Source of the DNA: an uncultured SAR86 cluster bacterium
GTDB taxonomy: Bacteria; Pseudomonadota; Gammaproteobacteria; Magnimaribacterales; TMED112
Direction: 5' to 3'
Length of the DNA stretch: 64,000 nucleotides
Assembly: GCA_902619265.1 (NCBI GenBank)
Contig: CACNDL010000002.1
Coordinates: 8,505-72,504 of the forward strand
The notes beneath the pieces were generated by a model. That model was given only the letters and a program-made list of their open reading frames with translations, was not told the origin of the DNA and searched no databases. The position numbers and the translations under genes were made by a program. Shown piece by piece: positions 19,574-55,932 of the stretch (its first letter is position 1; each line of letters starts with the position of its first letter).

Positions 19574-19812
19574 TGAAAACATTTATTGAGAATCATTTAT
19601 TAAATTTAGATTTGCATGGCGTAAGACATGCTGATGTTAAGGATATCGTTGAAGATTTTGTTTTAACAAATCAAGATGAAATTCCATTAATTATCATATG
19701 CGGTAACTCAGCAAAAATGATAGAAATAGTTTCTTCAACTTTAAAAAGTATAGATGTTAATTTTGAGGAAACCCGTTACGGTAGAATTAGAGTAAATTCT
19801 CTTTATGCGTAA
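19573..19812 (+). CDS. small Smr-domain protein
   Basis: 79 aa with LDLHGVRHADV...IIICGNS (Smr LDLHG / xHGxG pattern). GTG start overlapping the iaaA stop. Confidence 0.55.
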   Translation: MKTFIENHLLNLDLHGVRHADVKDIVEDFVLTNQDEIPLIIICGNSAKMIEIVSSTLKSIDVNFEETRYGRIRVNSLYA

Positions 19813-20908
19813 ATTAAAAATTATTCAAATTTTACCAACTCTTAACACAGGTGGGGTTGAAAGAGGGGTTTTAGATTTTAACAAATACCTTGTAAATAAA
19901 GGTCATGACTCTTACGTCATCTCAAATGGGGGAAGGCAGGTTAAAAATTTAATAGAAGATGGCGGCAACCACATTCATTTACAGGTATCTAAAAAAAGTA
20001 TTTTTACCTTACTTCAAGCAAAGAAATTAGCAGATATTATTAATGAAATATCTCCAGATATTGTTCATATTCGATCAAGAATACCAGCGTGGGTTTTACA
20101 AACTTCAAAAATATTTCTTAAAAACCCAAGACCCATTATATTTTCAACATTTCATGGTTTATATAGCACACCCTTTTATAGTCGAATAATGGCAAGTTTT
20201 GATAGGGTAATAGCGATATCTAAAACTGTTGAAAAGTACGTCAATGAGAATTATGAACGTCACTTAAAAAGACCACCCAGACTAATCTACCGTGGTTCTG
20301 ACGAAGAGTATTTTTCACAAAAATTTGTGCCCTCAAATACTTACCTTGAAGACTTCTTCACAAAATTTCCCAGCCTAAGAGATAAAAAAATTATTTCTTT
20401 TCCAGGAAGACTTTCATCTTGGAAGGGGCAAGAATCATTTATTAAGTTAATCTCAGATTTGCCTCAAGAATTTAGTGGTTTAATTGTGGGGCCACATGAA
20501 TCTGCAAAGCCTAAATACCTAAAAAATTTAAAAAAACTTATAGAAGATTACAGATTACAGAACAGAATTTATTTTCATAACGCAAAAGATGACATAAGAG
20601 AAATATATTTTTTATCAGAAGTAGTCTTAAATCTATCATCTAAGCCAGAACCATTTGGAAGAACAGTTCTTGAAGCAGCCATGATGGGAAAAAAAATTGC
20701 TGGCTGGGATAGGGGAGGTCCTGGAGAAGTTTTAGAGATGTGTTTTCCTCAAGGTAAAGTCGAATTTAATAACTTTAATTCTCTTGTCGATACTGTCAAA
20801 ACTTTATCTGAGAAAGACGATATTCCAAGTAATATTTTTTTAACCTCAGATTTGATGCACTCAAAGACAATCGATTTTTATTTAGATGCCATTGATAAGA
20901 ATTCTTGA
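19805..20908 (+). CDS. GT4-family glycosyltransferase (LPS-core type)
   Basis: N-terminus ILPTLNTGGVERGV; C-terminal EPFGRTVLEAAMMGK (the E(x7)E region of GT-B/GT4 enzymes). Confidence 0.75.
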   Translation: MRKLKIIQILPTLNTGGVERGVLDFNKYLVNKGHDSYVISNGGRQVKNLIEDGGNHIHLQVSKKSIFTLLQAKKLADIINEISPDIVHIRSRIPAWVLQTSKIFLKNPRPIIFSTFHGLYSTPFYSRIMASFDRVIAISKTVEKYVNENYERHLKRPPRLIYRGSDEEYFSQKFVPSNTYLEDFFTKFPSLRDKKIISFPGRLSSWKGQESFIKLISDLPQEFSGLIVGPHESAKPKYLKNLKKLIEDYRLQNRIYFHNAKDDIREIYFLSEVVLNLSSKPEPFGRTVLEAAMMGKKIAGWDRGGPGEVLEMCFPQGKVEFNNFNSLVDTVKTLSEKDDIPSNIFLTSDLMHSKTIDFYLDAIDKNS

Positions 20909-21846
20909 TACTTCTCGATTACTTTTTGAGTTTGGATTGAAAGCAGGTTGTTACTCACAATATTGTCAAAACAATCATTTTGAATTGAGGGTAATTCATC
21001 TACTCTGTCCATCCACTTTTTTATTAAAAGCTTAAATGATTCATCATTGGCATCTGCAACACATTCTTTTGGTAAAACATCACCGATATTTCCACAATTT
21101 GTAGATAGAACAGGAACTTTGCAATATAAAGATTCGTATAAGACTTTTGGAGATCCTTCTCTATCAGATGAAATTATCAATGCTTGCGCCTTACTAAGCA
21201 CTGAGCCAATATCTTCGGTTTCTGATTGAATTTTGATACAGTCGCTTAATCCTAGTTCTCCTATTAAAGTTATTAGATTATTTTCCAATTGACCACTCCC
21301 AACCATTAGTAATTTTCCATACTTAGAATTCCAAGCTCTAATAAGTCTTTCAGGGTTCTTCACTGGTTCAAACCTTCCTAAATATAAAAAATATTCAGGG
21401 GATTTTTTTTTAAAATTGCAAAATCTACTTTCATCAACCCAATTCTCTAAAACCATAGATTTTTGTTTTGGTATTTTTTCTAGAGATTTTTTACTCGCCC
21501 CAAAAATAAATTGTGACTTTTTAAAAGCCGCCACGTTTTTCTTTGTTCCATGAATGGTCGAAAAATGTGAATCAGTTTTAATAATATTTGTCATTTTTTG
21601 ACCATGGGTATGAACTACATCAGGATTAATTCTTGCCATTGCATCGCGTAATTCAAGCCAAAGTAGTGGTGAATAGCGCCATTGATTGGTATTAATTGTT
21701 GTGTAGTTAGCCCTAAATTTATCTTTGAATCTTTCTGGACCAATGACCACAACCTGGTGACTCTTGGATTGTTCATATGATAGCTCCTCAACATGTCTTT
21801 CAAGACCGGCAAAGACTTTACTAGAGAATAAGTGAAGTATTTTCAT
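20878..21846 (-). CDS. GT4-family glycosyltransferase
   Basis: MKILHLFSSKVFAGLERHV..., ..SSDREGSPKVLYESLYCKVPV (GT4 C-terminal motif). Confidence 0.7.
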   Translation of the reverse strand: MKILHLFSSKVFAGLERHVEELSYEQSKSHQVVVIGPERFKDKFRANYTTINTNQWRYSPLLWLELRDAMARINPDVVHTHGQKMTNIIKTDSHFSTIHGTKKNVAAFKKSQFIFGASKKSLEKIPKQKSMVLENWVDESRFCNFKKKSPEYFLYLGRFEPVKNPERLIRAWNSKYGKLLMVGSGQLENNLITLIGELGLSDCIKIQSETEDIGSVLSKAQALIISSDREGSPKVLYESLYCKVPVLSTNCGNIGDVLPKECVADANDESFKLLIKKWMDRVDELPSIQNDCFDNIVSNNLLSIQTQKVIEKYQEFLSMASK

Positions 21847-22760
21847 AAAATTTCTAATAGTTTTTGAACCACTTCTTTTGTCTCAGATAAAGGTTCATTA
21901 ATCTTTGGATGAACCAAATCCGCGGATTTAATTGATCTAGATAAAAGGTATCTCTTTGAATCGACGTAACCTATTTGACCTGAATCTTTTAACTTATCGA
22001 TATTTTTCGTAACTTTTGTATTTCTTTTGCCGTGTTCACCATCAGTGTGATGTTCGTGATGAAAAACATAAACTTTTGTATTTGTTGATAAACCCTCATA
22101 AAGTACTGATACACTCTCAGGTGTTAAAAAAGTAATCTCGCTCTGTTTTATTTCTTCAGATAACCAATTCTCAGGCGTATCTTTCCAACTAAAAAAACTT
22201 GCATTCCCAGAGTGTGCTGGAATATCTAAATTAGGAGATCTTGGTGATGTAGTTATTTTCCATTGATAATCTTTATAAAGATCATTTACGAGCCATTCAA
22301 TTTGTTGCTTAACAACATTTTTACGGAAATGATAGTGTCGACTTTTTCCTCCAATTATTATCAGGCCTGTTTTGGGTTTAGTTTCCAAATCAGAGTATTT
22401 TGATAAAACACCTTTAGTGGTTATGACATTTTTTGGCTTTCCTAAATAATATGTATCCATGTCAGGAACAATGGCAATATCAAACCATTGTGTTGGTCGT
22501 AATGAGGGTTTCATCAATACAATAGTCTTAGCTTTTGGATGTTCTTTTTTTGCTGTGAGCATATGTTTATGGGTATTATTTCCAGCACCAATAATTATGT
22601 CTGGTACAGAATTATGATTTTCCCAAGAAGTGAATTGATGAAGGTCAATTTTTTTGAATAGGCTAATTTCTGAAATAAGGGCTTCTACTTGCTTTTCATG
22701 GCCTTTTTTTCCATCTTTGAAGGCCCAAATAGTAATTTCTTCTTTTTGTTTTATAGACAT
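21843..22760 (-). CDS. ELM1/DUF1022-family protein (GT-B-like, often found in LPS clusters)
   Basis: N-terminal IWAFKDGKKGHEKQVEALI matches my memory of the ELM1-family signature. About 305 aa. ATGA overlap with the downstream GT4 gene. Confidence 0.5.
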   Translation of the reverse strand: MSIKQKEEITIWAFKDGKKGHEKQVEALISEISLFKKIDLHQFTSWENHNSVPDIIIGAGNNTHKHMLTAKKEHPKAKTIVLMKPSLRPTQWFDIAIVPDMDTYYLGKPKNVITTKGVLSKYSDLETKPKTGLIIIGGKSRHYHFRKNVVKQQIEWLVNDLYKDYQWKITTSPRSPNLDIPAHSGNASFFSWKDTPENWLSEEIKQSEITFLTPESVSVLYEGLSTNTKVYVFHHEHHTDGEHGKRNTKVTKNIDKLKDSGQIGYVDSKRYLLSRSIKSADLVHPKINEPLSETKEVVQKLLEIL

Positions 22761-22778
22761 AGATTAAAATAATGCTAC

Positions 22779-23552
22779 ATGACTAATAATAATCAATACA
22801 AATCTATTTTTCTTTCAGACATTCATCTTGGATTCAATGGTTGTCAAAATGAAAAGCTAGAATCATTTCTATCATCAGTAAAATGTGAAAGCTTATATCT
22901 TGTAGGCGATATTATTGATTTTTGGTCGATGGCTGACAATTTTTACTGGCCTGAAGAACATCAAAGGGTTCTAAATATTTTTGAGGCTAAGCATAAAGAA
23001 GGCACTAATGTGTTTTATATATCAGGTAATCATGATGACCCATTAAGAGATAAGAATCTCATTAAGAAACTTAAATCAAAGGACAACACGCATAAAAAAA
23101 TAATTGAGTCACTGGATAAATTTGAACACAAAGAAAAACATGATTTTGTATCTAAAAAATACGGAAAATTTTTAATTTTGCATGGGGATCAATATGATGT
23201 CGTCACTTCAAACGCAAAATGGTTATCAAAATTTGGAGGACTGCTTTACGACGGCTTGATTTACATTAACCGACCATTATCGAAATACTTAAAAAACTTA
23301 ACCAAAAAAATTGTTTCAGGTGCAAGTGGCTTTCAAAAACTTGTTAAAAAAGAATGCGAGGAAGGTGATTATGATGGTCTGATGTGCGGTCATAACCATA
23401 GACCAGAGATCTTGAAATTTAAAACACACATTTATATGAATACTGGCGATTGGGTAGAATCATGTTCTGCTATAGTTGAAGAGATGGATGGAACTATAAA
23501 ATTAATTAAAATTGATAAGAATTTTAAGGTGAATACAGTAGCAAAGTTATGA
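22779..23552 (+). CDS. LpxH-superfamily metallophosphoesterase, PlcP-like phospholipase C candidate
   Basis: IFLSDIHLG, VGDIIDFW, ISGNHDD, LHGDQYD, CGHNHRP, NTGDWVES. Has GNHD rather than the GNRDF I recall for true LpxH. ATGA-coupled to a GT4 gene. Confidence 0.6.
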   Translation: MTNNNQYKSIFLSDIHLGFNGCQNEKLESFLSSVKCESLYLVGDIIDFWSMADNFYWPEEHQRVLNIFEAKHKEGTNVFYISGNHDDPLRDKNLIKKLKSKDNTHKKIIESLDKFEHKEKHDFVSKKYGKFLILHGDQYDVVTSNAKWLSKFGGLLYDGLIYINRPLSKYLKNLTKKIVSGASGFQKLVKKECEEGDYDGLMCGHNHRPEILKFKTHIYMNTGDWVESCSAIVEEMDGTIKLIKIDKNFKVNTVAKL

Positions 23553-24541
23553 AAAAAATCTTAATTATTACAGATGCATGGGAACCTCAAGTCAATGGCG
23601 TTGTAACAACCATGACAACGGTTGTGCAGAAATTGAGAGAGAAAAATTTTGCGGTTGATGTTATCCATCCTGGTGTGTTTCATACCTTCCCATTGCCAAA
23701 CTACCCTGAAATCTCGGTAGCTTGGAATTTTTGGGATTTAAAAAAGAAAATCGAAAAATCCAATGCAGATTTTATGCATATTTCAGTTGAGGGCCCCTTG
23801 GGTGTAACGGGCAGACATTATTGTTTAGAGCATGAAATACCATACACTACCTGTATACATACAAAGTTTCCTGAATATGTCTATGAGAGGTTTGGTATAG
23901 GTTTAGACGTGACGAAAGGGCTACTAAAATGGTTTCATAATTCCGCGGCAAAAACCCTTGTTAACACCGAGAGTCATAAAGCAGAACTTGAGGACGATGG
24001 TTTTACAGATTTAGTCCTTTGGTCGCGTGGTTTCGATGAAAAAATATTTTATCCATGCCCTGAGGGCGGAAAACAGAAATATTTGTTGTATGTTGGAAGG
24101 GTTGCAGTTGAAAAAAATATTGAAGAATTTTTAAAAATGCCTTCCGAACTACCAAAAGTAGTTGTTGGAGGTGGGCCAAGTCTGAAGTCCTATGCAAGAA
24201 AGTACCCAGATGTTGATTTTGTTGGATTTAAAAAAGGTAAAGAATTGGCTGATTATTATAGAGATGCTGCTTGTTTTGTCTTTCCATCTTTAACTGATAC
24301 TTTTGGAATAGTATTAATTGAAGCATTGGCATGTGGCACACCTATAGCAGGATTCAATGTTACTGGCCCAAAAGATATTGTAATTGAGGGTGTGAATGGC
24401 TCATTAGATGATAAAAATTTAAAAGATGCAGTTAATCGAGCATTACAAGTTGATAGAGCAACTACTTTTGATTCCTCAAAAACTTATACTTGGGATACTG
24501 TGGCTGAGCAGTTTATAAACTCTTTAGTTCCAATGAAATAA
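23549..24541 (+). CDS. GT4 glycosyltransferase, Agt-like (glycosyl/glucuronosyl-diacylglycerol synthase candidate)
   Basis: ILIITDAWEPQVNGVVTT..NYPEI..HISVEGPLG..HTKFPEY..; C-terminal PSLTDTFGIVLIEALACGTP. Confidence 0.6.
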   Translation: MKKILIITDAWEPQVNGVVTTMTTVVQKLREKNFAVDVIHPGVFHTFPLPNYPEISVAWNFWDLKKKIEKSNADFMHISVEGPLGVTGRHYCLEHEIPYTTCIHTKFPEYVYERFGIGLDVTKGLLKWFHNSAAKTLVNTESHKAELEDDGFTDLVLWSRGFDEKIFYPCPEGGKQKYLLYVGRVAVEKNIEEFLKMPSELPKVVVGGGPSLKSYARKYPDVDFVGFKKGKELADYYRDAACFVFPSLTDTFGIVLIEALACGTPIAGFNVTGPKDIVIEGVNGSLDDKNLKDAVNRALQVDRATTFDSSKTYTWDTVAEQFINSLVPMK

Positions 24542-25338
24542 TGTTTGTTTTTTTACCCATCTCAGACGAGAATCCAACGCCTAGCAAACCTTATTTAACT
24601 TGGTCTTTAATTGCTATAAATTTCCTCGTATTTTTCTATCAATTATCACTGACTGGTACAGCTAACCAGATGTTAGTGAATGAATTCGGAGTCAAACCTA
24701 GTGTATTTTTTGAAATGCAAAACTTCCACACAATTTTAACTTCTGCATTTTTACATGCGGGTTGGATGCATTTACTTTCAAATATGCTTTTTTTATACAT
24801 TTACGGAGACAATATTGAATCTTATTTGGGTCGAACTAACTTTTTAATCTTTTATATTCTTGGAGGGGTATCTGCTGCATTCTTACAAGCTTTCTTTTCT
24901 GGTGGAGTAGATGTACCAATGATTGGAGCTAGTGGTTGTATAGCTGGAATCATGGGAGCGTATTATGTTCTTTATCCTAAGGCTAAGATAAATGTTTTTT
25001 TATGGTTTTTTATATTTATTCAATTCATAAAAGTTCCAGCCAATATCGTTCTACTAATGTGGATTATTGGGCAATTTATTTCGGCAGCTGGTGGTTCATA
25101 TACAGGTGTAGCTTATTTTGCTCACATAGGTGGATTCATATTTGGCTACCTAGCAATAAAATATTTTTTTAAAGAATATATTCAAGGTGTAGAAGTTGTT
25201 TCGAATTATGAGGAAGTAAATGAAAACGATATACCTATTTCAAGAAAAAATAAGTCTCAAGGACTTAGCAGAATGGATGAATTTAAACAAAGATTAAGAG
25301 AACAAGAGAAGTCAAAAAGGGATAATTGGAATGATTGA
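24541..25338 (+). CDS. rhomboid-family intramembrane serine protease
   Basis: Six or more TM helices; HAGWMHLLSNM, catalytic GASGCIAGIMGAY and FAHIGGFIFG. Confidence 0.85.
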   Translation: MFVFLPISDENPTPSKPYLTWSLIAINFLVFFYQLSLTGTANQMLVNEFGVKPSVFFEMQNFHTILTSAFLHAGWMHLLSNMLFLYIYGDNIESYLGRTNFLIFYILGGVSAAFLQAFFSGGVDVPMIGASGCIAGIMGAYYVLYPKAKINVFLWFFIFIQFIKVPANIVLLMWIIGQFISAAGGSYTGVAYFAHIGGFIFGYLAIKYFFKEYIQGVEVVSNYEEVNENDIPISRKNKSQGLSRMDEFKQRLREQEKSKRDNWND

Positions 25339-25627
25339 TAATATTAAAAAAAATCTTACTAAAAATATTTCTTGTAACCATTTGGAAATAATTGATGAAA
25401 GCCCTAATCACGGAGGCTATAGTGGAGCTATTTCACACGTAAAGATAATTGTAGTATCAGATGATTTTGAGGGCCTTAGTCTGATTAAAAGACATCAACT
25501 TGTTTATAAAGCATTAGAAAATTTTGTGAAGGAAATTCATGCTATTTCGATAGTTTCAAAAACAGTATCCCAGTGGAAAGAGTCATCTGACTATATTCCC
25601 TCACCAGATTGTGCAAAAAACAAATGA
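25331..25627 (+). CDS. BolA-family protein
   Basis: 98 aa; ..LEIIDESPNHGG...SHVKIIVVSDDFEG.S.IKRHQLVYKAL matches the BolA fold signature. Confidence 0.8.
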   Translation: MIDNIKKNLTKNISCNHLEIIDESPNHGGYSGAISHVKIIVVSDDFEGLSLIKRHQLVYKALENFVKEIHAISIVSKTVSQWKESSDYIPSPDCAKNK

Positions 25628-27882
25628 AATTTTTTTTTCAATCAATAATTGCAAATAAAAATCTTGCCCTCTTTGTCTTAGTAACTCTGAGCGTTATTCT
25701 TTTTTCTTGGATAGATAAATTTCGATTTGATGCCTCATCTGAAACACTGGTTCTTGAAGATGATCTAAGTTATGAATTGTATGAGGAAATGAATGATCGG
25801 TTTTCTTCTTCAGAGTTTCTTGTTGTTGCCCTGATAGATCAAGATATATTTTCAAATCAGGGTCTTATTAATCTTAGAAAGCTTGAAGCCAAGCTTGAAG
25901 ACGTCATTAATGTATCTAACGTCATATCTATACTTGATGCACCATTATTTGAGCAGCCAAAACTCTCTCTAGTTAAATCTGCTACCAATGATAAATATCT
26001 TTTAGTTGACGATCTAAATTTAATTAGTGCAAAACAAGAACTAATCGAAAGTCCTTTATTTAATCAATTGATAATTAATAATCTTGGTACAGCAGTTGCT
26101 ATGCAAATAAATTTAGATGATGCAGAAGACTACGACATCACCGTCAAACAAATAAGAGATATTCTCAAAGAGGATAAAAATTTTGAAAGTTATCTTGCAG
26201 GACCAGCGATGATTGTATCGGACACTATTGCTTATATAAAAAATGACGTTTTAACTTTTGGTTTCCTTACTTTTGTGATGTTTTTCGTTCTACTTATAGT
26301 TTTCTTTCGAGATTTTTGGTCTGCATTTGTAATTATGTCTAATGCCTCTTTAGTTATATACATAACGATTTGCTTATTGGGTTATTTTGACTGGCCCATA
26401 AGTATTGTTTCATCAAATTTTCTAACCTTATTGTTCATTTCATCGGTGGCTGTTTCAGTGCACATGATAGTCAAACTCAAAGAAGGAAAAACTAAAAAAT
26501 TTTCTTACGAGGAATCCCTCGCGAAAATTTTTATTCCTTGTCTCTACACAGCATTAACTACTATGGTTGGTTTTCTGTCATTGATATTAAGCAATATTCA
26601 ACCAGTAATAGATTTTGGAAAAATGATGGCAGTGGGCGTTATCATTAATTTACTGATTTCTTTTGTATTTATTCCAGCTCTTATCGGTCTTCGAGGTATA
26701 GCTGAATCAGCAGAATTCTCACTATCAAAAATTTATTACAAATACCTATATATAAATACAAAAAATTTATTTAAAAATTTTGGAGTACCACTTATTTTTT
26801 TGTTTTTGCCAATCTTTATATACCTATCTTCTGGACTGAAAGTTGAAAATAAATTTATTGATTACTTCGATGAGTCTACTGAGATCCATCAAGGTATGAA
26901 ATTTATAGACGAAGAATTAGGCGGCACTACCCCAATAGATATAGTTTTTACACTTCCTGAAGAAGAAATATTTATCGATGAAGATGATTTATTTTTTAGT
27001 GAGGGTTCTGAAACCAGCCAATATTGGTGGCGCCAAAAGAATATGAGGTTATTGAAAAGTATCCAATCTGGTTTGAATCAGTTTCCTGAACTAGGCAAAG
27101 ATTTGAGTATCGTTAATGGTGTTCTCTTAGCGGAAAAGCTTAATGATTTTAATGAAATGGGGGATTTAGAACTAGCATTTGTGAAGAATTCACTTCTTAC
27201 TAACGATAAAGCTAAAGATGTTCTGAATAGTTACATATCCCCAGATGATAGAAGTGCCAGGATTACTTTTAGAATTATAGATAGTTATAAAGACATAAAC
27301 AGAAATGATCTATTAATGAAAATTGATAGTTATTTAGCTAGTAAATTAAAAGACACTAATGTCGAGTACCAATTAAGTGGACTTGGTGTTCTTTATAATA
27401 ATTTGCTTCAAAGTCTTTTTGGATCCCAAATTACGTCTTTAACATTTGTATTTGGTGCAATTTTCGTAATGTTATTAATTTTATTTAGATCACTGCTTAC
27501 ATCTTTGATAGTAATTTTTGTGCCTTTAGTCGCAGTTGGATTTGTATTTTCTTTTATGAGTCTCTTCTCTATTCCCTTAGATATTATGACTATAACTATT
27601 GCTTCAATTTCAGTTGGTATGTCAGTTGACTATGCAATTCATATTGCATGGCGCTTTCGTGAAGAGCAAAAGATTTCACGAAGCAGTGCAGAAATAAATA
27701 CAATTAATTCTTCCGGTCAAGCTGTACTGATTACGGCCATGACAGTAATTGTTGGGTTCTTGGTATTCATTTTTTCTAATTTTAATCCAACTGTATTATT
27801 TGGACTGTTATCAGCTGTTGCAATTTTCGTTAGTGCTGCACTTGCACTTAGATTAATTCCAATTTTCTTAGAGTCTAAATAG
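25624..27882 (+). CDS. MMPL/COG1033-type RND-superfamily exporter (HpnN-like, sterol-sensing-domain type)
   Basis: Twofold 1+5 TM topology with two large periplasmic loops. N-terminus ..IDKFRFDASSETLV and the repeated GxxxD..VDYAIH region. I prefer ATG 25624 (ATGA overlap with the bolA stop) to the ORF-track start at 25609. Confidence 0.75.
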   Translation: MKFFFQSIIANKNLALFVLVTLSVILFSWIDKFRFDASSETLVLEDDLSYELYEEMNDRFSSSEFLVVALIDQDIFSNQGLINLRKLEAKLEDVINVSNVISILDAPLFEQPKLSLVKSATNDKYLLVDDLNLISAKQELIESPLFNQLIINNLGTAVAMQINLDDAEDYDITVKQIRDILKEDKNFESYLAGPAMIVSDTIAYIKNDVLTFGFLTFVMFFVLLIVFFRDFWSAFVIMSNASLVIYITICLLGYFDWPISIVSSNFLTLLFISSVAVSVHMIVKLKEGKTKKFSYEESLAKIFIPCLYTALTTMVGFLSLILSNIQPVIDFGKMMAVGVIINLLISFVFIPALIGLRGIAESAEFSLSKIYYKYLYINTKNLFKNFGVPLIFLFLPIFIYLSSGLKVENKFIDYFDESTEIHQGMKFIDEELGGTTPIDIVFTLPEEEIFIDEDDLFFSEGSETSQYWWRQKNMRLLKSIQSGLNQFPELGKDLSIVNGVLLAEKLNDFNEMGDLELAFVKNSLLTNDKAKDVLNSYISPDDRSARITFRIIDSYKDINRNDLLMKIDSYLASKLKDTNVEYQLSGLGVLYNNLLQSLFGSQITSLTFVFGAIFVMLLILFRSLLTSLIVIFVPLVAVGFVFSFMSLFSIPLDIMTITIASISVGMSVDYAIHIAWRFREEQKISRSSAEINTINSSGQAVLITAMTVIVGFLVFIFSNFNPTVLFGLLSAVAIFVSAALALRLIPIFLESK

Positions 27883-28659
27883 TTTTTTAAAATTACTTGT
27901 TGTTTGTTCTGCAACTATCTTGCTATCTTCTTTAATTAGATGAGAAACCACAGATAAAATATGTGCTAGATACATAGGTTCATTTCTGTGATTTTTTGGT
28001 TTGGATTCTATATCTTTTGGAACCAAATATGGAGCATCAGTTTCAAGTAACATTCTATCAAGAGGAATATATTTAATAATTTCTCTTAATTCCTGACCTC
28101 GTTTTGGATCACATATCCATCCAGTTATACCAATAAATAAACCGAGGTCTAAAAATTTTTTTAGTTCATTCTTATTGCCTGTAAAACAATGCACAATACT
28201 TTGAGGCACCTCACCAATAGCACTTTTAACGATGGGGTAAAAATCATTAAAAGCTTCTCTATGATGTAAAAACAAAGGATAATTTTCTTGAATTGCTAGC
28301 TCAACAAAAGTTTCAAAACACTTTATTTGAATCTGTGGGCTTTGAAAGTTTCTAAAATAGTCTAGACCTACTTCTCCAATTGATCTTACATACTTACTGT
28401 CCAAATGTGGTTTTAGATTAGCAATAGTGTCTGGTTTAAGTTCAGAAGCATGATGAGGGTGTATACCAATAGAGCAATAAACTTTATCCTCATAGACTTT
28501 GCAGTAATGCAATAAATTCTCAATTTCAGATTCTTTTGATGCTGGTGCAAAAAAATATTTTATTTTATGGTTTTCTGCCCTTTGAATAGTTTCATCTAAA
28601 TCATTCATGAAACTGTCATGTATAATATTGAAACAAGAATCTGCTAGTAACATTTGCAT
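27868..28659 (-). CDS. tatD: TatD-family metal-dependent hydrolase/DNase
   Basis: ..IGIHPHHA, IGEVGLDY, LHHREA, VHCFTG, LLETDAPYL. Confidence 0.85.
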   Translation of the reverse strand: MQMLLADSCFNIIHDSFMNDLDETIQRAENHKIKYFFAPASKESEIENLLHYCKVYEDKVYCSIGIHPHHASELKPDTIANLKPHLDSKYVRSIGEVGLDYFRNFQSPQIQIKCFETFVELAIQENYPLFLHHREAFNDFYPIVKSAIGEVPQSIVHCFTGNKNELKKFLDLGLFIGITGWICDPKRGQELREIIKYIPLDRMLLETDAPYLVPKDIESKPKNHRNEPMYLAHILSVVSHLIKEDSKIVAEQTTSNFKKLFRL

Positions 28660-28688
28660 ATAATTTGATAAACTCTAATCTAGTCTAA

Positions 28689-29531
28689 ATGAGATTCCAA
28701 GGTACAAAAAGCTATATAGCGACAGAAGATCTTAAACTTGCAGTTGATGCATCTTTAAGTTTGGAAAAACCACTTCTTGTAAAAGGAGAGCCTGGCACGG
28801 GGAAAACAATGCTAGCTCTTGAAGTTGCTGAGTCATTAGGTATGCGATTAATTGAGTGGCATATTAAGTCTACAACAAAAGCTTCACAGGGACTTTACGA
28901 GTATGATGCCGTATCACGTTTGAGAGATTCTCAGTTGGGAGATAAGAAAGTAGAGGACATTGCAAATTATATAAATAAAGGAAAATTGTGGGATGCTTTT
29001 ACGGCCGATGAACAAGTTGTTCTGCTTGTGGATGAGATTGACAAAGCTGATATCGAATTTCCAAATGATTTGTTGCAAGAATTAGACCGAATGGAATTTT
29101 ATTGTTATGAATTAGATCAAACAATTAAAGCCAAAAATAGACCGCTTGTAATTATTACCTCAAATAATGAAAAAGACTTACCTGACGCTTTTTTAAGAAG
29201 ATGTTTCTTTCACCACATAGCTTTTCCCGATAGAGATGTACTAGAAAAAATAATTTCAGTACACATTCCTAAAATCAAAAAGAAATTATTGAAAGATGCA
29301 ATGGATATCTTCTTTGATATTAGAAAAGTACCAGGTTTAAAAAAGAAACCATCAACTTCAGAACTGATTGATTGGTTAAAGTTAATTGTTTCAGATGATA
29401 TAGCTCAAGAAGTCATTGCTTCAAAAAATAGTAATCTAGTACCACCATTGTATGGTGCTCTTTTAAAAAATGAGCAGGACGTCGAGCTTCTACAACGTCT
29501 AGCATTCATGACTAGAAGAGAATCTAACTAA
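28689..29531 (+). CDS. MoxR-class AAA+ ATPase (CoxD-like)
   Basis: Walker A GEPGTGKT, Walker B VLLVDEIDKA, ITSNNEKDLPDAFLRRC. 280 aa. TAATG-coupled to the VWA gene. Confidence 0.8.
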   Translation: MRFQGTKSYIATEDLKLAVDASLSLEKPLLVKGEPGTGKTMLALEVAESLGMRLIEWHIKSTTKASQGLYEYDAVSRLRDSQLGDKKVEDIANYINKGKLWDAFTADEQVVLLVDEIDKADIEFPNDLLQELDRMEFYCYELDQTIKAKNRPLVIITSNNEKDLPDAFLRRCFFHHIAFPDRDVLEKIISVHIPKIKKKLLKDAMDIFFDIRKVPGLKKKPSTSELIDWLKLIVSDDIAQEVIASKNSNLVPPLYGALLKNEQDVELLQRLAFMTRRESN

Positions 29532-30712
29532 TGCTTATAAACTTATTTAATACTGTCAGAGCTTATGGTGTGCCTGTCAGCTTAAAGGAATTTTTAGATC
29601 TTTTAAAAGCGCTAGAAAAACAACTTGTTTTTGCTGATTGGAACGATTTTTATTTCTTATCCAGAACAATCTTAGTGAAAGATGAAAAATACTTCGACAA
29701 ATTTGATCGTGCATTTGATGTGTATTTCAGAGGAATTGAAAATATGGATGATGTTTTAAAAATGATCATCCCAGAAGATTGGATTAGAAAAGAATTTGAA
29801 AAGAACTTAACGGCTGAGGATTTAAAAAAGATTCAGGACTTAGGCGGTTTAGAAAAGTTGATGGAAGAATTCAAAAAAAGATTGGAGGAACAAGAAAAAG
29901 AACATCATGGTGGAAATAAATGGATAGGTACTGCAGGCACATCTCCCTTTGGTAATTCAGGAAATCATCCCAACGGAATAAGGGTAGGAGGCAAGTCAAA
30001 TAAAGGTATGGCTGCAAAAGTTTGGGAAGAAAGAAATTATGAAAATCTTGATGATTCACTTCAGTTAGGCACTCGAAATATAAAAATTGCCTTGAGAAAA
30101 CTTAGAAAAATGGCTAGAAAAGGGGAGAACTTCGAATTCAATTTAGATAATACTATCAAGAGTACAGCTAAAAATGCTGGTTATTTAGAATTGGAGTATG
30201 TAAGAGAAAAACTCAATGATATCAATCTAATCGTATTCTTTGACGTTGGAGGGTCGATGGATCCATTTGTGAAGATGTGTGAAGAATTGTTTTCAGCTGC
30301 AAAATCGGAATTTAAAAATCTTGAATACTACTATTTTCATAATTGCATATACGAGTCAGTATGGAAAGACAATTTCAGAAGGAATGAAAATAGAGTTCTC
30401 ACGCAAAGTATTCTGAATAAATTTTCTCCAAATCATAAAATTTTAATCATTGGAGATGCGAGTATGGCTCCTTATGAACTCACTAATGCTGGAGGTAGTA
30501 TTGAACATTGGAACAAAGAATCTGGAGAACATTGGTTAAAAAAGATTCACTCATATTTTCATAAAACTGTGTGGCTAAATCCTGTACATGAAGATCATTG
30601 GGACTATACCTCAACGATAAAAATGATTAACGCCTTGATGGATGAAAAAATGTACCCATTAACTATTAGCGGTATATCAGGAGCAGTTAACCACTTATCC
30701 AAAAGACATTAA
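29531..30712 (+). CDS. VWA-domain protein (CoxE-like partner of MoxR)
   Basis: 393 aa; C-terminal VWA fold with a MIDAS-like VFFDVGGSMDPF (DxGxS variant of DxSxS). Confidence 0.65.
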   Translation: MLINLFNTVRAYGVPVSLKEFLDLLKALEKQLVFADWNDFYFLSRTILVKDEKYFDKFDRAFDVYFRGIENMDDVLKMIIPEDWIRKEFEKNLTAEDLKKIQDLGGLEKLMEEFKKRLEEQEKEHHGGNKWIGTAGTSPFGNSGNHPNGIRVGGKSNKGMAAKVWEERNYENLDDSLQLGTRNIKIALRKLRKMARKGENFEFNLDNTIKSTAKNAGYLELEYVREKLNDINLIVFFDVGGSMDPFVKMCEELFSAAKSEFKNLEYYYFHNCIYESVWKDNFRRNENRVLTQSILNKFSPNHKILIIGDASMAPYELTNAGGSIEHWNKESGEHWLKKIHSYFHKTVWLNPVHEDHWDYTSTIKMINALMDEKMYPLTISGISGAVNHLSKRH

Positions 30713-31623
30713 TGAAAGCCTTAGAAATCAAAAATTTAAAAAAAATTTATGCCAATGAAGTAGTTGCATTAAAAGGCATAGACTTGGTTGTTGAAAGTGG
30801 CGATTTCTTCGCATTATTAGGTCCGAATGGTGCGGGTAAATCGACTACGATAGGTATAATTTCATCCCTAGTTACCAAAGATCATGGATCTATCTCAATT
30901 TGTGGCATTGATATTGATGAAAACTTTCCCCTAGCGAAGTCGAAGCTTGGTGTGGTGAACCAAGAATTCAATTTTTCACAATTTGAAAAAGTAAGAGATG
31001 TGATTATGGCGCAAGCTGGGTATTACGGAGTAGATCCAAAAACAGCTGCAGCAAGAACTGAGGAGTATCTAAAAAAATTAGGCATTTGGGATAAAAGAGA
31101 TGTGTTCATAAGAGAGCTGTCAGGTGGTCAAAAAAGAAGGGTAATGATCATTAAAGCTTTAATTCATAAGCCGGAATTATTAATACTGGATGAGCCAACA
31201 GCTGGCGTGGACATTGAGTTAAGAAGAGGTCTTTGGGATTTTCTGATAGATATTAATAAAGGTGGCACAACTATTATCCTTACTACGCACTATCTTGAAG
31301 AGGCGGAGAATCTTTGTCGAAATATTGCGATTATCGATAATGGCACCATCATTGAAAATACAAAAATGGAACATTTGCTTAAGAAGCTGGAAAACCAAGT
31401 TTTTACAATAGAAACCACTGAAAGCATTCCAGATAATCTTAAAATTGAAGGTTTTAATCTTACTGTTGAAGACAACAATAAATTTTCTGTGATCGTTCCT
31501 AAAGATGTCAGTATGAATAAATTATTTGAAAACGATTCGTTCAAACAGTTAGAAGTGACGAACATTAAGAATCAAACCAATAGACTAGAAGAACTATTTT
31601 TAAACCTCACATCAAAAAAATGA
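30712..31623 (+). CDS. ABC transporter ATP-binding protein (ABC-2/YadG type)
   Basis: GPNGAGKST, LSGGQKRR, LLILDEPTAGVD, TTHYLEEAE. Confidence 0.9.
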   Translation: MKALEIKNLKKIYANEVVALKGIDLVVESGDFFALLGPNGAGKSTTIGIISSLVTKDHGSISICGIDIDENFPLAKSKLGVVNQEFNFSQFEKVRDVIMAQAGYYGVDPKTAAARTEEYLKKLGIWDKRDVFIRELSGGQKRRVMIIKALIHKPELLILDEPTAGVDIELRRGLWDFLIDINKGGTTIILTTHYLEEAENLCRNIAIIDNGTIIENTKMEHLLKKLENQVFTIETTESIPDNLKIEGFNLTVEDNNKFSVIVPKDVSMNKLFENDSFKQLEVTNIKNQTNRLEELFLNLTSKK

Positions 31624-32393
31624 ATCATTTACAGTCCTTGAAAACATTGTCATACGTTCAGGTAAGAAGAATACTTCGGATTTGGATTCAAACAATTATT
31701 CCCCCTGCAATCACCACTGCACTATATTTTTTGATTTTCGGTGAATTGATTGGAAGCAGAATTGGAGAAATGCCTGGTTACGAAGGTCTGACATATTTAG
31801 AGTTTATGGTTCCCGGACTAATAATGTTAGCAGTTATAACCAACTCATACGCTAATGTTGCCTCAGCATTTTTTGGAGCAAAATTTCAGAAAGCTATCGA
31901 AGAAATACTTATTTCACCCATGGCAAATTGGGCAATTCTTCTAGGATTTATTGTAGGCGGTATAGCAAGAGGAGTTTTGGTTGGTGTGGTTGTTGTCTTG
32001 GTAAGCTTATTTTTCACTAATTTTGGTATCAGTAATGTATTTCTAACACTTTTTTCAATTTTATTAACATCAACATTATTTTCAATTTTAGGTTTAATTA
32101 ATGGTGTTTATGCTAAAACTTTTGATGATATCAGCATTGTGCCAACTTTCGTGCTTACTCCACTAATCTACTTGGGCGGCATCTTTTACTCTATAGAAAT
32201 TTTGAGCGATCAGTGGCAATTTTTCTCTAAAATCAACCCGATTCTTTATATTGTGAATTTCTTTAGATATGCAATGCTTGGGACTTCAGAGATTGATCCA
32301 ACACTAGGATTAGTTCTTATTTGTGTTTTCACAGTTGGGTTTTTTGCTTTAGCGTATTATTTGTTACACAAAGGTGTAGGTGTAAAAGATTAA
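31620..32393 (+). CDS. ABC-2 type transporter permease (YadH-like)
   Basis: 257 aa, 6 TM helices, ABC-2 signature region. ATGA overlap with the ATPase gene. Confidence 0.8.
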   Translation: MNHLQSLKTLSYVQVRRILRIWIQTIIPPAITTALYFLIFGELIGSRIGEMPGYEGLTYLEFMVPGLIMLAVITNSYANVASAFFGAKFQKAIEEILISPMANWAILLGFIVGGIARGVLVGVVVVLVSLFFTNFGISNVFLTLFSILLTSTLFSILGLINGVYAKTFDDISIVPTFVLTPLIYLGGIFYSIEILSDQWQFFSKINPILYIVNFFRYAMLGTSEIDPTLGLVLICVFTVGFFALAYYLLHKGVGVKD

Positions 32394-33104
32394 ATGGCAG
32401 GACCACTTGGAAAAAAAGTAGCTGTACCAGATTCCTTCAGCCCAGAAATACTTTTTCCAATTTCTCGTGATAATCAGAGAAGAGACAAAGATCTAATTTT
32501 TGAAAAAGGTATGGATATATGGAATCTTCATGAGATTTTTTGGCTAAATCAGGAAAGTGTTTCCAATCATAACGAACTTTCTATTCAGATCCCCGCAGAT
32601 TCAAAATTCACTGTAGAGTCAAAATCCTTAAAACTTTTTGTAAATTCCTTGATCCATACAAGATTTGAATCACTAAAAGAGGTCACAGATACAATCAAAA
32701 GTCATGTGGAAAATTTAATAGAAACTTCGATCAAAATCAGTGGTATTCACCCTAAAAAGGAGCTAAGCTCTAAAAAAATTATCATAAATTCTGACTTTAG
32801 TCATGCTCCTAAAGTCAGTGAAAATCATGCAATTACTAGATTCTCTGGTTTTCGTTCGCTTTGTCCGGTCACATCACAACCTGATATAGCAGACATATAC
32901 ATTGATGGATCTATAAATCCTGAAGACATAATTAATATTTCCAATTACCTAGGTACATTTTTTGACAAAGAATGTTTTCATGAATTATGTGTTGAATACA
33001 TATTCAGCGATTTAATCAGAGCTGGATACAAAATAAATTCAGTTGAGGGTTATTTCGAAAGAAGGGGTGGAATAGCAATTATACCTGTTAGAACCACCGC
33101 TTAA
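32394..33104 (+). CDS. queF: NADPH-dependent 7-cyano-7-deazaguanine (preQ0) reductase, two-domain type
   Basis: QueF motif ESKSLKLFVNS and catalytic-Cys segment FRSLCPVTSQPD. Confidence 0.8.
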   Translation: MAGPLGKKVAVPDSFSPEILFPISRDNQRRDKDLIFEKGMDIWNLHEIFWLNQESVSNHNELSIQIPADSKFTVESKSLKLFVNSLIHTRFESLKEVTDTIKSHVENLIETSIKISGIHPKKELSSKKIIINSDFSHAPKVSENHAITRFSGFRSLCPVTSQPDIADIYIDGSINPEDIINISNYLGTFFDKECFHELCVEYIFSDLIRAGYKINSVEGYFERRGGIAIIPVRTTA

Positions 33105-37053: not shown

Positions 37054-37911
37054 ATGAGTACAAGAGATTTTTTAACATTATTATTAGTTTCACTTTTTTG
37101 GGGCGGTTCATTCCTTTTTTTAAGATTGCTTGTCATAGAAGGATTGGAACCATTGCAGATTGTCTCGTTGAGAATGTTATTTGCCGCTATATTTATTGCA
37201 CCTTTTTTTATATTAAAGTTAAAGAAACATTCTTTTTTTGATCATGGATTTCCTATTCTCTTAATAGGTTTATTAAATACAGCGTTACCATTTACATTAT
37301 TTGCATATGCATCTGTGAATTTAGGAGCTGGTTCTTTATCAGTTTTACAAGCAACAGTGCCAATCCTTACAGCATTGCTACTTTTTAGTTTGTACAGAGA
37401 TGAATTTTCTTACATGAAACTTCTAGGTGTTTTAATTGGATTTTCAGGTTTATTTTTACTAGCAGGTCCGTCAGGAGAGTTAGATTTATTTTCTTCAATA
37501 CTTTGTGTTTTTGCCTCAATGTCTTATGCAATATCTGGTGTTTATTTGGCTAATACACCATCTTCAATTAATAATTCTTTTATTGGTATGGGATCACTCA
37601 TTGTGGGTGCCGTATTGCTCTCACCATTTTTATTTGTCTATGGCGAAGCCAATCTATCAATAAGTTCTACATCTTGGCTTTACATTGCAATTCTAGGGAT
37701 AATAAACACATCTTTAGCTTATGTCATATTCATTAAGCTTATAAAAAGAATAGGCTCTTTAAATGCTTCTTTTGTTACATACTTAGTTCCAGTATCCAGC
37801 ATATCTTTAGGGATACTAATTTTAGATGAGGTATTTACACTAGATATGGTAATAGGCTCCGCTTTAATCTTTCTGGGAGTATTCTTTTCGAACAAACAAA
37901 CAACTAAGTAG
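37054..37911 (+). CDS. DMT-superfamily (EamA-like) transporter
   Basis: 285 aa, 10 TM helices, two EamA-type repeats (..LFWGGSFLF.. N-terminus). Confidence 0.8.
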   Translation: MSTRDFLTLLLVSLFWGGSFLFLRLLVIEGLEPLQIVSLRMLFAAIFIAPFFILKLKKHSFFDHGFPILLIGLLNTALPFTLFAYASVNLGAGSLSVLQATVPILTALLLFSLYRDEFSYMKLLGVLIGFSGLFLLAGPSGELDLFSSILCVFASMSYAISGVYLANTPSSINNSFIGMGSLIVGAVLLSPFLFVYGEANLSISSTSWLYIAILGIINTSLAYVIFIKLIKRIGSLNASFVTYLVPVSSISLGILILDEVFTLDMVIGSALIFLGVFFSNKQTTK

Positions 37912-38824
37912 TTTTAGGTCCCAGATGGCTTTTATTTTTTGCTTTAGCAAGGTTAATTTGTTTTTGTCTTGATTTATATCTTTGAACTTGTTCAGAAGAT
38001 TTAACTGTTACGCAATGAGAACAAGAAACTCCTTTAACATAATTATTGGATAGTTTTTCTTGTTCAGTAATAGGCATTCTACATCCATGACATAAATCGT
38101 AATCTCCTTGAGATAGATCATGTTTTACAGAGACTCTTTCATCAAAAACGAAGCATTCCCCTTGCCACAGGCTATTTTTTATATCTATATTTTCGAGGTA
38201 TTTTAAAATTCCGCCTTTGAGATGATAAACATTTTTGAATCCTTCATTTTTCATATAAGAGGAAGCTTTTTCACATCTTATTCCCCCTGTACAAAACATA
38301 GCTATGTTCTTAGATTTTTTAACTTCTTCAGTAAACTTTTGTTTTTTCACCCAATTAGGAAATTCTTTAAAATTTGAAGTTTTTGGATTGATAGAATTTT
38401 TAAATGTCCCAATTGAATATTCATAATCATTTCTTGTATCAATTAAGACCGTATCCTCATCGTTTAATAGTGAATCCCATTGGTCGTAACTAACGTATTT
38501 GCCGGCTTGTGTAGTTGGCTTAATATCATCAATACCCATAGTTACGATTTCTTTTTTAATTTTCACTTTTAATCTTAAAAATGGCGCTTTGTTAGAAAAA
38601 GAAGGTTTTATGTCGAGGTCAGAAAATCTACTGTCAGACTTAAGAAATTTCAAAGTTTTATTTATGTTTGTTTCACTGCCTGACACAGTGCCATTAATGC
38701 CCTCATGACCAATAATAATAGTGCCTAAGATTTGTAAATTTTTGAGCTCCTTTTTTAAGATCATTTGGAGTTTTTTAGGATTTGTAATCTCACAAAATTT
38801 ATATAAAGCTATTATTTTATGCAT
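37904..38824 (-). CDS. trhO: rhodanese-domain tRNA uridine(34) hydroxylase (UPF0176/YceA family)
   Basis: N-terminus ALYKF.., rhodanese active-site loop [13 protein letters not shown]-terminal Cys-rich CHGC...CSHC. Confidence 0.8.
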
Positions 38825-45297: not shown

Positions 45298-45331
45298 GTT
45301 TGTTTTGAAATTATATGTTAATTTTAAATCT

Positions 45332-46027
45332 ATGGAAAAAATTGCTATAGCTTCTGGTAAAGGAGGTGTAGGTAAAACCTCAATTACTTTAATAATTGCT
45401 AATCATCTAAGCAACCAAGGCTTTCAAGTTGGTTTATTAGATGCAGATATATACGGACCCAACTTAACGCAAATAATCCTTCCAGATAATTCAAAATATT
45501 CCATAACCCACGATGAAAAATTAAATAAATTTATACCTTTAGCAATAGGCAATATATTGATAAATTCAATAGACTTTGTGGTAGATAAACAGAAAGCAGC
45601 AATTTGGAGAGGACCAGTTTTAAGTAAAGCGATTAAACAATTATACCAAGGAACAAATTGGGGCGATCTTGACTATTTATTGATAGATATGCCACCTGGT
45701 ACAGGTGATGCTTATCTTACAATTCTGAATGATTTAGATATTAATGATGTTGTCTTAGTTGCTGTGGAAGATGATTTCTGTATTGCAGATTTACATAAAA
45801 CCAATTCACTCATCAAAAAATTTAAAAAAAATTGCTTAGGCATAATTGAAAATATGTCTGAAAATTTTGATATTAATGATGATCCAGTTCTGAGTAAAAG
45901 AATTAAGGATGAATTCAATTTAAAAATTTTATTTACTTTACCAAGAATCCCAAGAAAAGATTTTTATGAAGAACTAGTCAATCTTGATAAACTAAAAAAA
46001 TATATACCAAAGAAAATGTTTAAATGA
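45332..46027 (+). CDS. Mrp/NBP35/ApbC-family P-loop ATPase (short form lacking the CXXC motif)
   Basis: Deviant Walker A ASGKGGVGKT, LLIDMPPGTGD, GIIENMS. Divergent from metG as in E. coli. I prefer the start at MEKIAIAS (45332) to ORF-track 45296, which overlaps the metG start. Confidence 0.75.
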   Translation: MEKIAIASGKGGVGKTSITLIIANHLSNQGFQVGLLDADIYGPNLTQIILPDNSKYSITHDEKLNKFIPLAIGNILINSIDFVVDKQKAAIWRGPVLSKAIKQLYQGTNWGDLDYLLIDMPPGTGDAYLTILNDLDINDVVLVAVEDDFCIADLHKTNSLIKKFKKNCLGIIENMSENFDINDDPVLSKRIKDEFNLKILFTLPRIPRKDFYEELVNLDKLKKYIPKKMFK

Positions 46028-53459: not shown

Positions 53460-55621
<2,162 letters not shown>

Positions 55622-55629
55622 GAGAATAA

Positions 55630-55932
55630 ATGAACGAAGCAGCAGGACCATCTTTTTTACCATTTTTAATGCTATTAGTATTCTTTTTGTTTATTTATTT
55701 TGTAACCATTAGACCACAACAAAAAAGACAGAAAGAACATGAAGCCCTTGTTACATCATTGGAAAAAGGGGATGAGGTTATGACGTCATCTGGGCTAGTA
55801 GGAAAAATAGAAAACATTTCTGACCGTTATGTGAGTGTTAAATTAAACGATCAAGTCTCTATTAACATGCAAAAAGAGTTTGTAGCATCAAAATTACCGA
55901 AAGGCACTATTAACAGCATTGAATCACAGTGA
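55630..55932 (+). CDS. yajC: preprotein translocase subunit YajC
   Basis: 100 aa; single TM helix, then IRPQQKRQKEH..L.KGDEV.T..G..GKI. Confidence 0.9.
   Translation: MNEAAGPSFLPFLMLLVFFLFIYFVTIRPQQKRQKEHEALVTSLEKGDEVMTSSGLVGKIENISDRYVSVKLNDQVSINMQKEFVASKLPKGTINSIESQ

Follow-up and report, generated by a model that had tools for sequence, protein, structure and literature searches.

A probable PlcP-Agt lipid-renovation pair ahead of a probably older string of housekeeping genes in half of the SAR86 order

Few heterotrophs of the surface ocean are as abundant as SAR86 bacteria. We analyzed five adjacent genes in a 64-kb stretch of SAR86 DNA (hereafter the window), which represents a very abundant species with hundreds of near-identical copies in public metagenomes. 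Homologues of gene 1 at 57% identity carry the annotation 'SAR86 cluster bacterium'. The genes encode a metallophosphoesterase, a glycosyltransferase of family GT4, a rhomboid protease, a BolA-family protein, and a transporter of the MMPL/RND superfamily. The main features of the locus are as follows.

22709-22823, no strand assigned: conserved DNA around the plcP start (5' codons of an ELM1-like gene, an 18-bp intergenic stretch, and the first plcP codons)
22779-23552, + strand: plcP, predicted PlcP-type metallophosphoesterase (phospholipase C of lipid renovation), 257 amino acids
23549-24541, + strand: agt, predicted Agt/GTcp-clade GT4 diacylglycerol glycosyltransferase, 330 amino acids
24541-25338, + strand: rhomboid-family intramembrane serine protease, 265 amino acids (Pfam Rhomboid, 4.9e-30)
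25331-25627, + strand: BolA-family protein, 98 amino acids (Pfam BolA, 3.6e-21)
25624-27882, + strand: MMPL/RND-superfamily (HAE3-like) membrane transporter, 752 amino acids (Pfam MMPL twice)

The five reading frames were checked against the list of open reading frames (ORFs), and their junctions were re-read. Genes 1 and 2 meet at an ATGA (23549-23552), genes 2 and 3 at a TAATG with a 1-nucleotide (nt) overlap (24541), genes 3 and 4 in an 8-nt overlap (25331-25338), and genes 4 and 5 at a second ATGA (25624-25627); gene 5 has an alternative TTG start at 25609. Pfam assigns to the genes, in order, Metallophos, Glyco_transf_4 plus Glycos_transf_1 (GT4), Rhomboid, BolA, and MMPL domains. Coordinates, junction letters, and domains all agree with a preliminary description of this DNA, which had listed five same-strand genes of these types with these junctions.

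Gene 1 is predicted to encode PlcP, and not the lipid A enzyme LpxH, based on its profile scores, motifs, and relatives. It matches Pfam Metallophos at 5.5e-11. The two LpxH equivalog models used (TIGR01854 and NF003743) score it at 36.3 bits against a cut-off of 190.35 and at 44.2 bits against a cut-off of 134, with residues 8-86 alone aligning. The best match to a solved LpxH structure has E=3e-4, similarity is weak beyond the first 90 residues, and the third motif reads GNHD where the LpxH structures have GNRD. An alignment with seven PlcP homologues shows no variation at the metal-motif residues D14, H16, D44, N84, H85, H135, H205, and H207, which belong to the calcineurin-like motifs DxH, GD, GNH[D/E], H, and GHxH. 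The closest relatives outside SAR86 are 37-43% identical over the full length (40-43% for homologues from Pelagibacter and other alphaproteobacterial phosphorus [P]-stress loci). In Pelagibacter and in another alphaproteobacterial metagenome-assembled genome (MAG), the relative lies in the order diacylglycerol kinase, plcP-agt, olsA-olsB, phoR-pstSCA(B); in Lentilitoribacter, in plcP-btaA-btaB; and in another bacterium, in GT21, plcP, GT4, btaAB. Sebastián et al. (2016, PMC4796936) describe types of plcP context to which these arrangements correspond. Among PlcP matches of 37-44% identity, which were inspected for a PlcP from the other part of SAR86 (group B, below), the two contexts examined were this btaAB-type locus and a phage contig. 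In Table S1 of Ramfelt et al. (2024), which lists CheckM markers, each SAR86 genome has one match to the true LpxH model TIGR01854, and a separate lpxH therefore exists in the order; none lies within the 64-kb window. The proposal that gene 1 is PlcP-like rather than LpxH thus holds on three counts: LpxH scores below cut-off, the GNHD motif, and relatives in PlcP contexts. The SAR86 PlcP sequences also have an insertion of ~15 residues right after GNHDDPLRD (alignment A2, columns 100-190) and lack a ~14-residue segment (…NxxRxxxGxxYWS…) found in the alphaproteobacterial and phage PlcP homologues of the same alignment.

Gene 2 carries every published signature of the Agt clade, as its initial description as an Agt-type GT4 would lead one to expect. 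Members of this clade have a His104-Asp256 dyad, in which Asp replaces the usual GT4 Glu, together with the motifs GRVAXEKN and FPSXTDTFG, a Gly-rich motif, and the diacylglycerol-binding residues Thr162, Arg163, and Trp320 (Wei et al. 2021, PMC8231724). In gene 2, H104 and D250 (within TDTFG, corresponding to GTcp Asp256) are invariant in alignment A3, and the motifs GRVAVEKN, FPSLTDTFG, and an N-terminal PQVNGVV are present. The diacylglycerol-binding Thr162, Arg163, and Trp320 of GTcp have their aligned counterparts in S159 (Ser for Thr, a conservative change), R160, and W315. Identity to the Agt homologues of plcP-agt loci from Pelagibacter, a further alphaproteobacterium, and a phage contig is 40-45%. 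On these features, gene 2 is predicted to be an enzyme of the Agt/GTcp clade.

The agt gene overlaps the plcP stop by 4 nt; a gene predicted to serve the synthesis of a non-phosphorus lipid thus directly adjoins plcP. In the proposed mechanism, PlcP would cut the phosphorylated head group off membrane glycerophospholipids to give diacylglycerol, and Agt would then glycosylate this diacylglycerol from a UDP-sugar, giving glucosyl- or glucuronosyl-diacylglycerol. We infer both activities from orthology and conserved catalytic residues.

To place the remaining genes, we compared loci outward from the MMPL gene. A plain search for MMPL homologues gave just sequences of this species at 99% identity or more and no distant contexts, so one genome per GTDB species was scanned with an alignment of five SAR86 MMPL proteins. 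The scan gave 60 loci, which were annotated by BLASTP with the window proteins; it returned SAR86 MAGs, single-amplified genomes, and the complete genomes TMED112-A1 (CP097968) and HIMB1674 (CP151794), and the regions around the loci were compared.

Group A comprises 23 species-level loci, including TMED112-A1, with MMPL identities of 51-83%. Wherever the contig reaches, all of these loci have the same order: an ELM1-like gene on the - strand, then plcP-agt-rhomboid-bolA-MMPL, then tatD (-)-AAA-VWA-ABC-ABC2-QueF. With the metagenome loci added to the genome scan, the five-gene order is seen in ~30 group-A species. However, ~20 kb of unrelated flanks are equally conserved, including asparaginase, GT4, and TonB-receptor genes upstream and further genes downstream, and the five-gene block is therefore not set apart from general synteny. 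The changes seen within the group are an Amidohydro_3 insertion between plcP and agt and the loss of the ELM1-like gene and one GT4 gene in two loci (L016 and L017). PlcP identity co-varies with the identity of its neighbours (Spearman 0.47-0.87), an indication that the genes have been inherited vertically from the ancestor of group A. Sebastián et al. (2016, PMC4796936) had already reported PlcP from single-cell genomes of SAR86; their supplementary table records PlcP in SAR86C and names no lipid gene beside it. Because the SAR86C gene had no recorded lipid neighbour, the complete plcP-agt pair across group A is a modest addition.

Group B holds 13 loci with MMPL identities of ~37%, including the cultured Magnimaribacter mokuoloeensis HIMB1674. 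Here rhomboid, BolA, MMPL, TatD (-), AAA, VWA, ABC, ABC2, and QueF genes keep the order and strands of group A, and no PlcP or Agt homologue was found in the 10 loci that have at least 6 kb of upstream sequence (6-10 kb). In HIMB1674 the order is MFS-rhomboid-DUF3604-MFS-Ogt-BolA-TrhO-MMPL-CoA-transferase, followed by TatD and, further on, AAA-VWA-ABC-ABC2-QueF, a tightly packed set of functionally unrelated genes. All group-B loci have trhO (UPF0176/rhodanese) after bolA and ahead of the MMPL gene (e.g., L043:9049-9966, +). In the window, trhO lies ~10 kb downstream on the opposite strand (37904-38824, -), a position that marks the rearrangements by which the group-A locus was compacted. In group A, plcP-agt and a glycosyltransferase island fill the space upstream of the rhomboid gene, and the intervening group-B genes are absent; whether those genes were gained in B or lost in A does not matter to the conclusion. 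The SAR86 order has two halves, one of the Suzuki and CHAB-I-7 families and one of Magnimaribacteraceae and RedeBAC7D11 (Ramfelt et al. 2024). Since group A contains the TMED112 loci and group B contains HIMB1674, we assign group A, probably, to the half formed by Suzuki/D2472 and CHAB-I-7/TMED112, and group B to the other half. The backbone of rhomboid, BolA, MMPL, TatD, and AAA-VWA-ABC-QueF genes, as judged from this comparison of gene orders, would predate the SAR86 (Magnimaribacterales) split and be independent of plcP-agt.

More distant loci give a similar picture. Group C consists of 24 loci, mostly from Kangiellaceae (L049-L064 and L068-L075), whose MMPL proteins are 30-33% identical over the full length. 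In most of them the MMPL gene is a single gene flanked by conserved genes on the opposite strand, and none of the 24 Kangiellaceae-type loci has plcP-agt beside MMPL or an operon partner that hints at a substrate. We also compared ~87 plcP loci from outside SAR86, with up to 4-8 kb of DNA on each side: L010, L011, L014, L015, L076, L077, 80 IMG/VR loci, and the phage Mosig. Among them are two alphaproteobacterial MAG loci, one from Pelagibacter, one from Lentilitoribacter, a btaAB-type locus, and a phage-like contig. No rhomboid, BolA, or MMPL homologue lies near plcP in any of these loci over that distance.

The tight junctions of the five genes were set against the packing of the whole window, measured from a greedy gene call of 60 genes. 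The coding share is 96.4%, and same-strand neighbours meet at 0 bp or less in 24 of 38 junctions (median -1). Overlaps of 4-44 nt join the 3' ends of all 10 convergent pairs (e.g., 27868-27882, 20878-20908, and 46700-46743). Because 24 of the 38 same-strand junctions are already at or below 0 bp, four such junctions in succession are expected with a chance of ~0.16, about one in six. The next + strand run, AAA/MoxR-VWA-ABC-ABC2-QueF (28689-33104), also has four such junctions among functionally unrelated genes, and other tight controls in the window are Mrp/ApbC-MlaA (45296-46743, 4-nt overlap) and queA-tgt-(100-amino-acid ORF)-secD-secF (53460-58678). The packing of the five genes is thus not above the genome background, which puts a number on the caveat of the preliminary description that overlap proves nothing in a compact genome. 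The packing of the 64-kb window is extreme even among streamlined genomes. A promoter and terminator scan of 21800-28800 found no terminator-like sites and no excess of promoter-like sites.

Taken together, these comparisons suggest that genes 1 and 2 are probably a canonical PlcP-Agt lipid-renovation pair and that genes 3-5 belong to an older housekeeping string, joined to the pair by packing and vertical inheritance and not as parts of a functional module. The five genes abut or overlap because nearly all neighbours do so in a 96%-coding genome. Several points weigh against this reading. The junctions of agt, rhomboid, BolA, and MMPL are unbroken in ~30 group-A species, with MMPL identities down to 51%. 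Read-through transcription is possible because the block has no terminator-like site, and co-transcription of the five genes, and hence their co-regulation, is plausible. A lipid substrate of the MMPL protein is not implausible either, given that its distant relatives HpnN and MmpL3 move lipids elsewhere. Finally, the comparison covered the regions around the loci, and group-B or Kangiellaceae genomes could hold plcP-agt elsewhere, which would weaken the independence of the backbone from the pair.

The products of genes 3-5 were placed in families from their domains and motifs. The rhomboid protein has the motif HxxxxHxxxN (residue 72) and the catalytic GASG (129) and AHIGG (194), and its orthologue occupies the same backbone position in SAR86 families that have no plcP-agt there. 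The BolA protein scores 62.7 bits with the BolA equivalog model, under the cut-off of 137. The MMPL protein scores 133.8 bits with Pfam MMPL (cut-off 20.5) and falls under the family cut-offs for HAE3 (152/352 bits), the MMPL-RND subfamily (101/875), and HpnN (80/752 and 36/1100). It is thus a member of the superfamily that falls in no characterised family. Matches to MmpL3 and HpnN structures (E=6e-9 to 4e-8) are confined to ~180 residues of the C-terminal transmembrane (TM) bundle; the hydropathy profile fits 2x(1 TM + soluble domain + 5 TM), and a D669-Y670 pair lies in the C-terminal bundle. HpnN is a hopanoid transporter and MmpL3 a trehalose-monomycolate exporter, and both move lipids in other bacteria.

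The five genes lie between an upstream glycosyltransferase island (19805-22760), whose genes are context and stand outside the pair, and the downstream backbone (27868-33104):

19805-20908, + strand: GT4 glycosyltransferase (Pfam)
20878-21846, - strand: GT4 glycosyltransferase (Pfam)
21843-22760, - strand: ELM1-like protein (Pfam)
27868-28659, - strand: TatD
28689-29531, + strand: AAA/MoxR
29531-30712, + strand: VWA
30712-31623, + strand: ABC ATPase
31620-32393, + strand: ABC2 permease
32394-33104, + strand: QueF

The island is found in group-A SAR86 only, between the common GH3 region and the rhomboid gene, and is partly deleted in L016 and L017. NCBIfam gives no specific name for the ELM1-like protein. 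The tatD gene converges on the MMPL gene with a 15-nt 3' overlap.

We weighed two other explanations of the five genes. One, put forward in the preliminary description, is that they form a single operon in which PlcP-Agt makes glycolipids, the MMPL protein exports them to the outer membrane, and the rhomboid and BolA proteins adjust the envelope. The genes are indeed co-directional and overlapping with no terminator-like site, their order is stable over ~30 group-A species, and the MMPL protein is a distant relative of the lipid exporters MmpL3 and HpnN. However, overlap is the norm in this genome, and unrelated flanks are equally syntenic. Group B keeps rhomboid, BolA, and MMPL collinear in the absence of plcP-agt and with Ogt, MFS, DUF3604, and TrhO genes interspersed; in most Kangiellaceae loci the MMPL orthologue stands by itself; and the ~87 non-SAR86 plcP loci have none of the three genes nearby. 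Our literature search likewise found no paper linking PlcP with MMPL, RND, or HpnN proteins. The neighbourhood comparison suggested in the preliminary description therefore came out against its export module: the linkage of rhomboid-BolA-MMPL to plcP-agt is confined to one half of SAR86, and the export inference fails because that linkage is not conserved in other lineages, a condition that had been named beforehand. The functional coupling of the five genes is unsupported, and we consider an export operon very unlikely.

The other explanation reads the pair as part of lipid A or lipopolysaccharide (LPS) synthesis: gene 1 would encode a paralogue of LpxH and gene 2 a glycosyltransferase of the LPS core, and the two would extend the adjacent island. 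The pair does adjoin two GT4 genes and an ELM1-like (GT-B-like) gene, and homologues of gene 1 are publicly annotated as 'UDP-2,3-diacylglucosamine diphosphatase'. Yet gene 1 lies far under the LpxH cut-offs and has GNHD for GNRD, and SAR86 genomes have a separate, single-copy TIGR01854 LpxH. Gene 2 has both Agt motifs and, at the catalytic position, the Asp in place of Glu that is specific to Agt, the closest relatives of both genes are genes of the Pelagibacter P-stress locus, and plcP-agt is kept in L016 and L017 despite partial loss of the island. We rejected this explanation as extremely improbable, on the LpxH scores, the GNHD motif, and the Agt signatures.

The region upstream of plcP bears on how the pair might be regulated. 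The 18-bp intergenic stretch at 22761-22778 reads AGATTAAAATAATGCTAC in the window; across group-A SAR86 (the same region in L001-L037 and L066), it is almost invariant as AGATTAAAATAATGMTAC. Among 19 distinct group-A sequences, nucleotide identity is 89% in the 5' part of the ELM1-like gene, 94% in the intergenic stretch, and 82% at the plcP start, with protein identities of 50-86%. Loci L016 and L017, which have lost the ELM1-like and GT4 genes, still keep the ~115-nt conserved region. This region (22709-22823) is probably the plcP promoter and translation-initiation region, and it may hold a bidirectional or leaderless promoter. By inference only, the arrangement TTGTTT-16-AATAAT, whose end lies 5 nt ahead of the ATG, would produce a leaderless mRNA.

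The plcP-agt1 genes of P. aeruginosa have a Pho box of the consensus CTGTCATNNNNCTGTCAT (PMC8528852). With this E. coli/Pseudomonas-type consensus, from which a SAR86 motif could differ, the best matches within 250 nt upstream of plcP in 26 group-A loci have 4-6 mismatches, which is background. At three mismatches or fewer there is no match near plcP in the window, and the window total is 6 against 6.1 expected. No such box was found inside the upstream ELM1-like gene, where the preliminary description had suggested looking. The best Pho-box-like match in the window, CATTCATGAAACTGTCAT, has two mismatches and lies at 28602-28619 (+), in the 5' end of tatD and 70 nt upstream of AAA/MoxR. The 64-kb window has no pho genes. 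Ramfelt et al. (2024) report the Pst high-affinity system from HIMB1674 and from part of RedeBAC7D11 but from none of the other families; the supplement of that paper has no text matches for phoB, lpxH, or MMPL. In a 2026 metatranscriptome study (PMC12981677), transcripts of pst and pho genes are attributed to SAR86 as a whole.

These observations raise the alternative that plcP-agt lies outside PhoB control and is expressed constitutively or under another signal from 22709-22778, with read-through into the string; the membrane would then be P-sparing at all times. Such control is a variant of the reading that we prefer, a lipid-renovation pair beside an older string, and does not exclude it. 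It gains from the missing Pho box, which sets every group-A locus apart from P. aeruginosa plcP-agt1, from the lack of pho genes in the window, and from the unusual conservation of the upstream region, which persists where the ELM1-like gene has been deleted. Because Pst is limited to part of RedeBAC7D11 and HIMB1674, expression of this kind in group A is a live possibility. On the other side, SAR86 could have a PhoB motif of its own that departs from the consensus we used, overlapping coding constraint partly explains the conservation of the region, and the pst and pho transcripts were attributed to SAR86 in general. On balance we think control outside PhoB rather unlikely. A more elaborate scenario would have plcP-agt captured at the head of an envelope-related string in the reportedly Pst-less half that we assign to Suzuki/CHAB-I-7, with a possibly leaderless, non-PhoB promoter in 22709-22778, read-through to rhomboid-bolA-MMPL, constitutive or non-Pho glycolipid synthesis, and an MMPL protein co-opted to move the glycolipids outward; as a whole, this is highly doubtful.

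Two side observations concern the pair itself. In several SAR86 lineages, an amidohydrolase gene (Amidohydro_3, 531 amino acids) lies between plcP and agt and overlaps both:

L013, 1391-2986: Amidohydro_3 insertion
L008, 6564-8162: Amidohydro_3 insertion
L012, 8765-10360: Amidohydro_3 insertion
L027-L029, L031, and L036: Amidohydro_3 insertion

NCBIfam gives no specific function for the inserted protein, which may be a third component of lipid head-group turnover or merely another packed gene. Because it sits between plcP and agt in these lineages, the pair itself is separable. The second observation concerns phages: plcP is common on marine phage contigs, often with agt right beside it. PlcP relatives of 35-43% identity occur in at least 581 stretches of IMG/VR, and plcP and agt stand side by side in 40 of the best 80 IMG/VR loci (L078-L157), as well as in the phage-like contig L077 (57-2582). 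One locus is clearly from a phage (L079, 6514-9741), with PhoH and, further along, plcP-agt among genes for a gp32-like single-stranded DNA-binding protein, an endolysin, and exonucleases. The cultured pelagimyophage Mosig EXVC030M encodes a PlcP homologue (annotated as LpxH) divergent from pstS (L158, MT647606.1, 93031-94866), and Synechococcus phage S-SRM01 encodes one too. The phage plcP(-agt) genes look like an auxiliary gene set for host lipid renovation; our literature search found no paper describing plcP-agt on marine phages.

The presence of plcP-agt in ~30 species of one half of SAR86, apparently without a canonical Pho box, widens the reach of P-sparing lipid renovation. It also bears on the taxonomic attribution of marine glycolipid pools such as MGDG and GADG. 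For streamlined genomes in general, overlapping, co-directional genes kept family-wide are no evidence of a common function, as a sister lineage with looser genomes reveals. The export idea, if true, would supply a missing step, the transfer of surrogate glycolipids to the outer membrane; nothing that we found favours it.

Several known systems resemble parts of this locus. LpxH belongs to the same calcineurin-like metallophosphoesterase superfamily as gene 1 and has a similar length and similar N-terminal DxH and GD motifs, but gene 1 falls below the LpxH cut-offs and has GNHD, not GNRD, and the true lpxH is a separate single-copy SAR86 gene. The MMPL protein shares with HpnN and MmpL3 two MMPL domains, a 2x(1+5) TM arrangement with two soluble loops, and the Asp-Tyr pair of the C-terminal bundle. 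It differs in missing all family cut-offs, and no hopanoid or mycolate genes lie near the SAR86 gene. Housekeeping strings of compact genomes (e.g., the gammaproteobacterial queA-tgt-yajC-secDF) are likewise co-directional, abut or overlap, and keep their order over long distances with no common function; the SAR86 string differs in having a specialised and probably horizontally mobile plcP-agt at its head, a pair that is also found on phage contigs.

The closest likeness is to the PlcP-Agt lipid-renovation pair, which Sebastián et al. (2016) class as the 'type 2' context of plcP and which has the same order of plcP then agt, here with a 4-nt overlap. Characterised examples are PB7211_983/PB7211_960 (GTcp) of SAR11 HTCC7211, Agt (Atu2297) of A. 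tumefaciens, PA3219-PA3218 of P. aeruginosa, and the PlcP proteins of S. meliloti and Phaeobacter. The identities of the SAR86 proteins to those of Pelagibacter and other alphaproteobacteria (40-43% for PlcP and 40-45% for Agt) resemble the 41-47% seen among characterised members. Unlike known PlcP-Agt loci, the SAR86 pair has no Pho box of the E. coli/Pseudomonas type and no neighbouring pst, phoR, or ols genes, and instead heads a housekeeping string.

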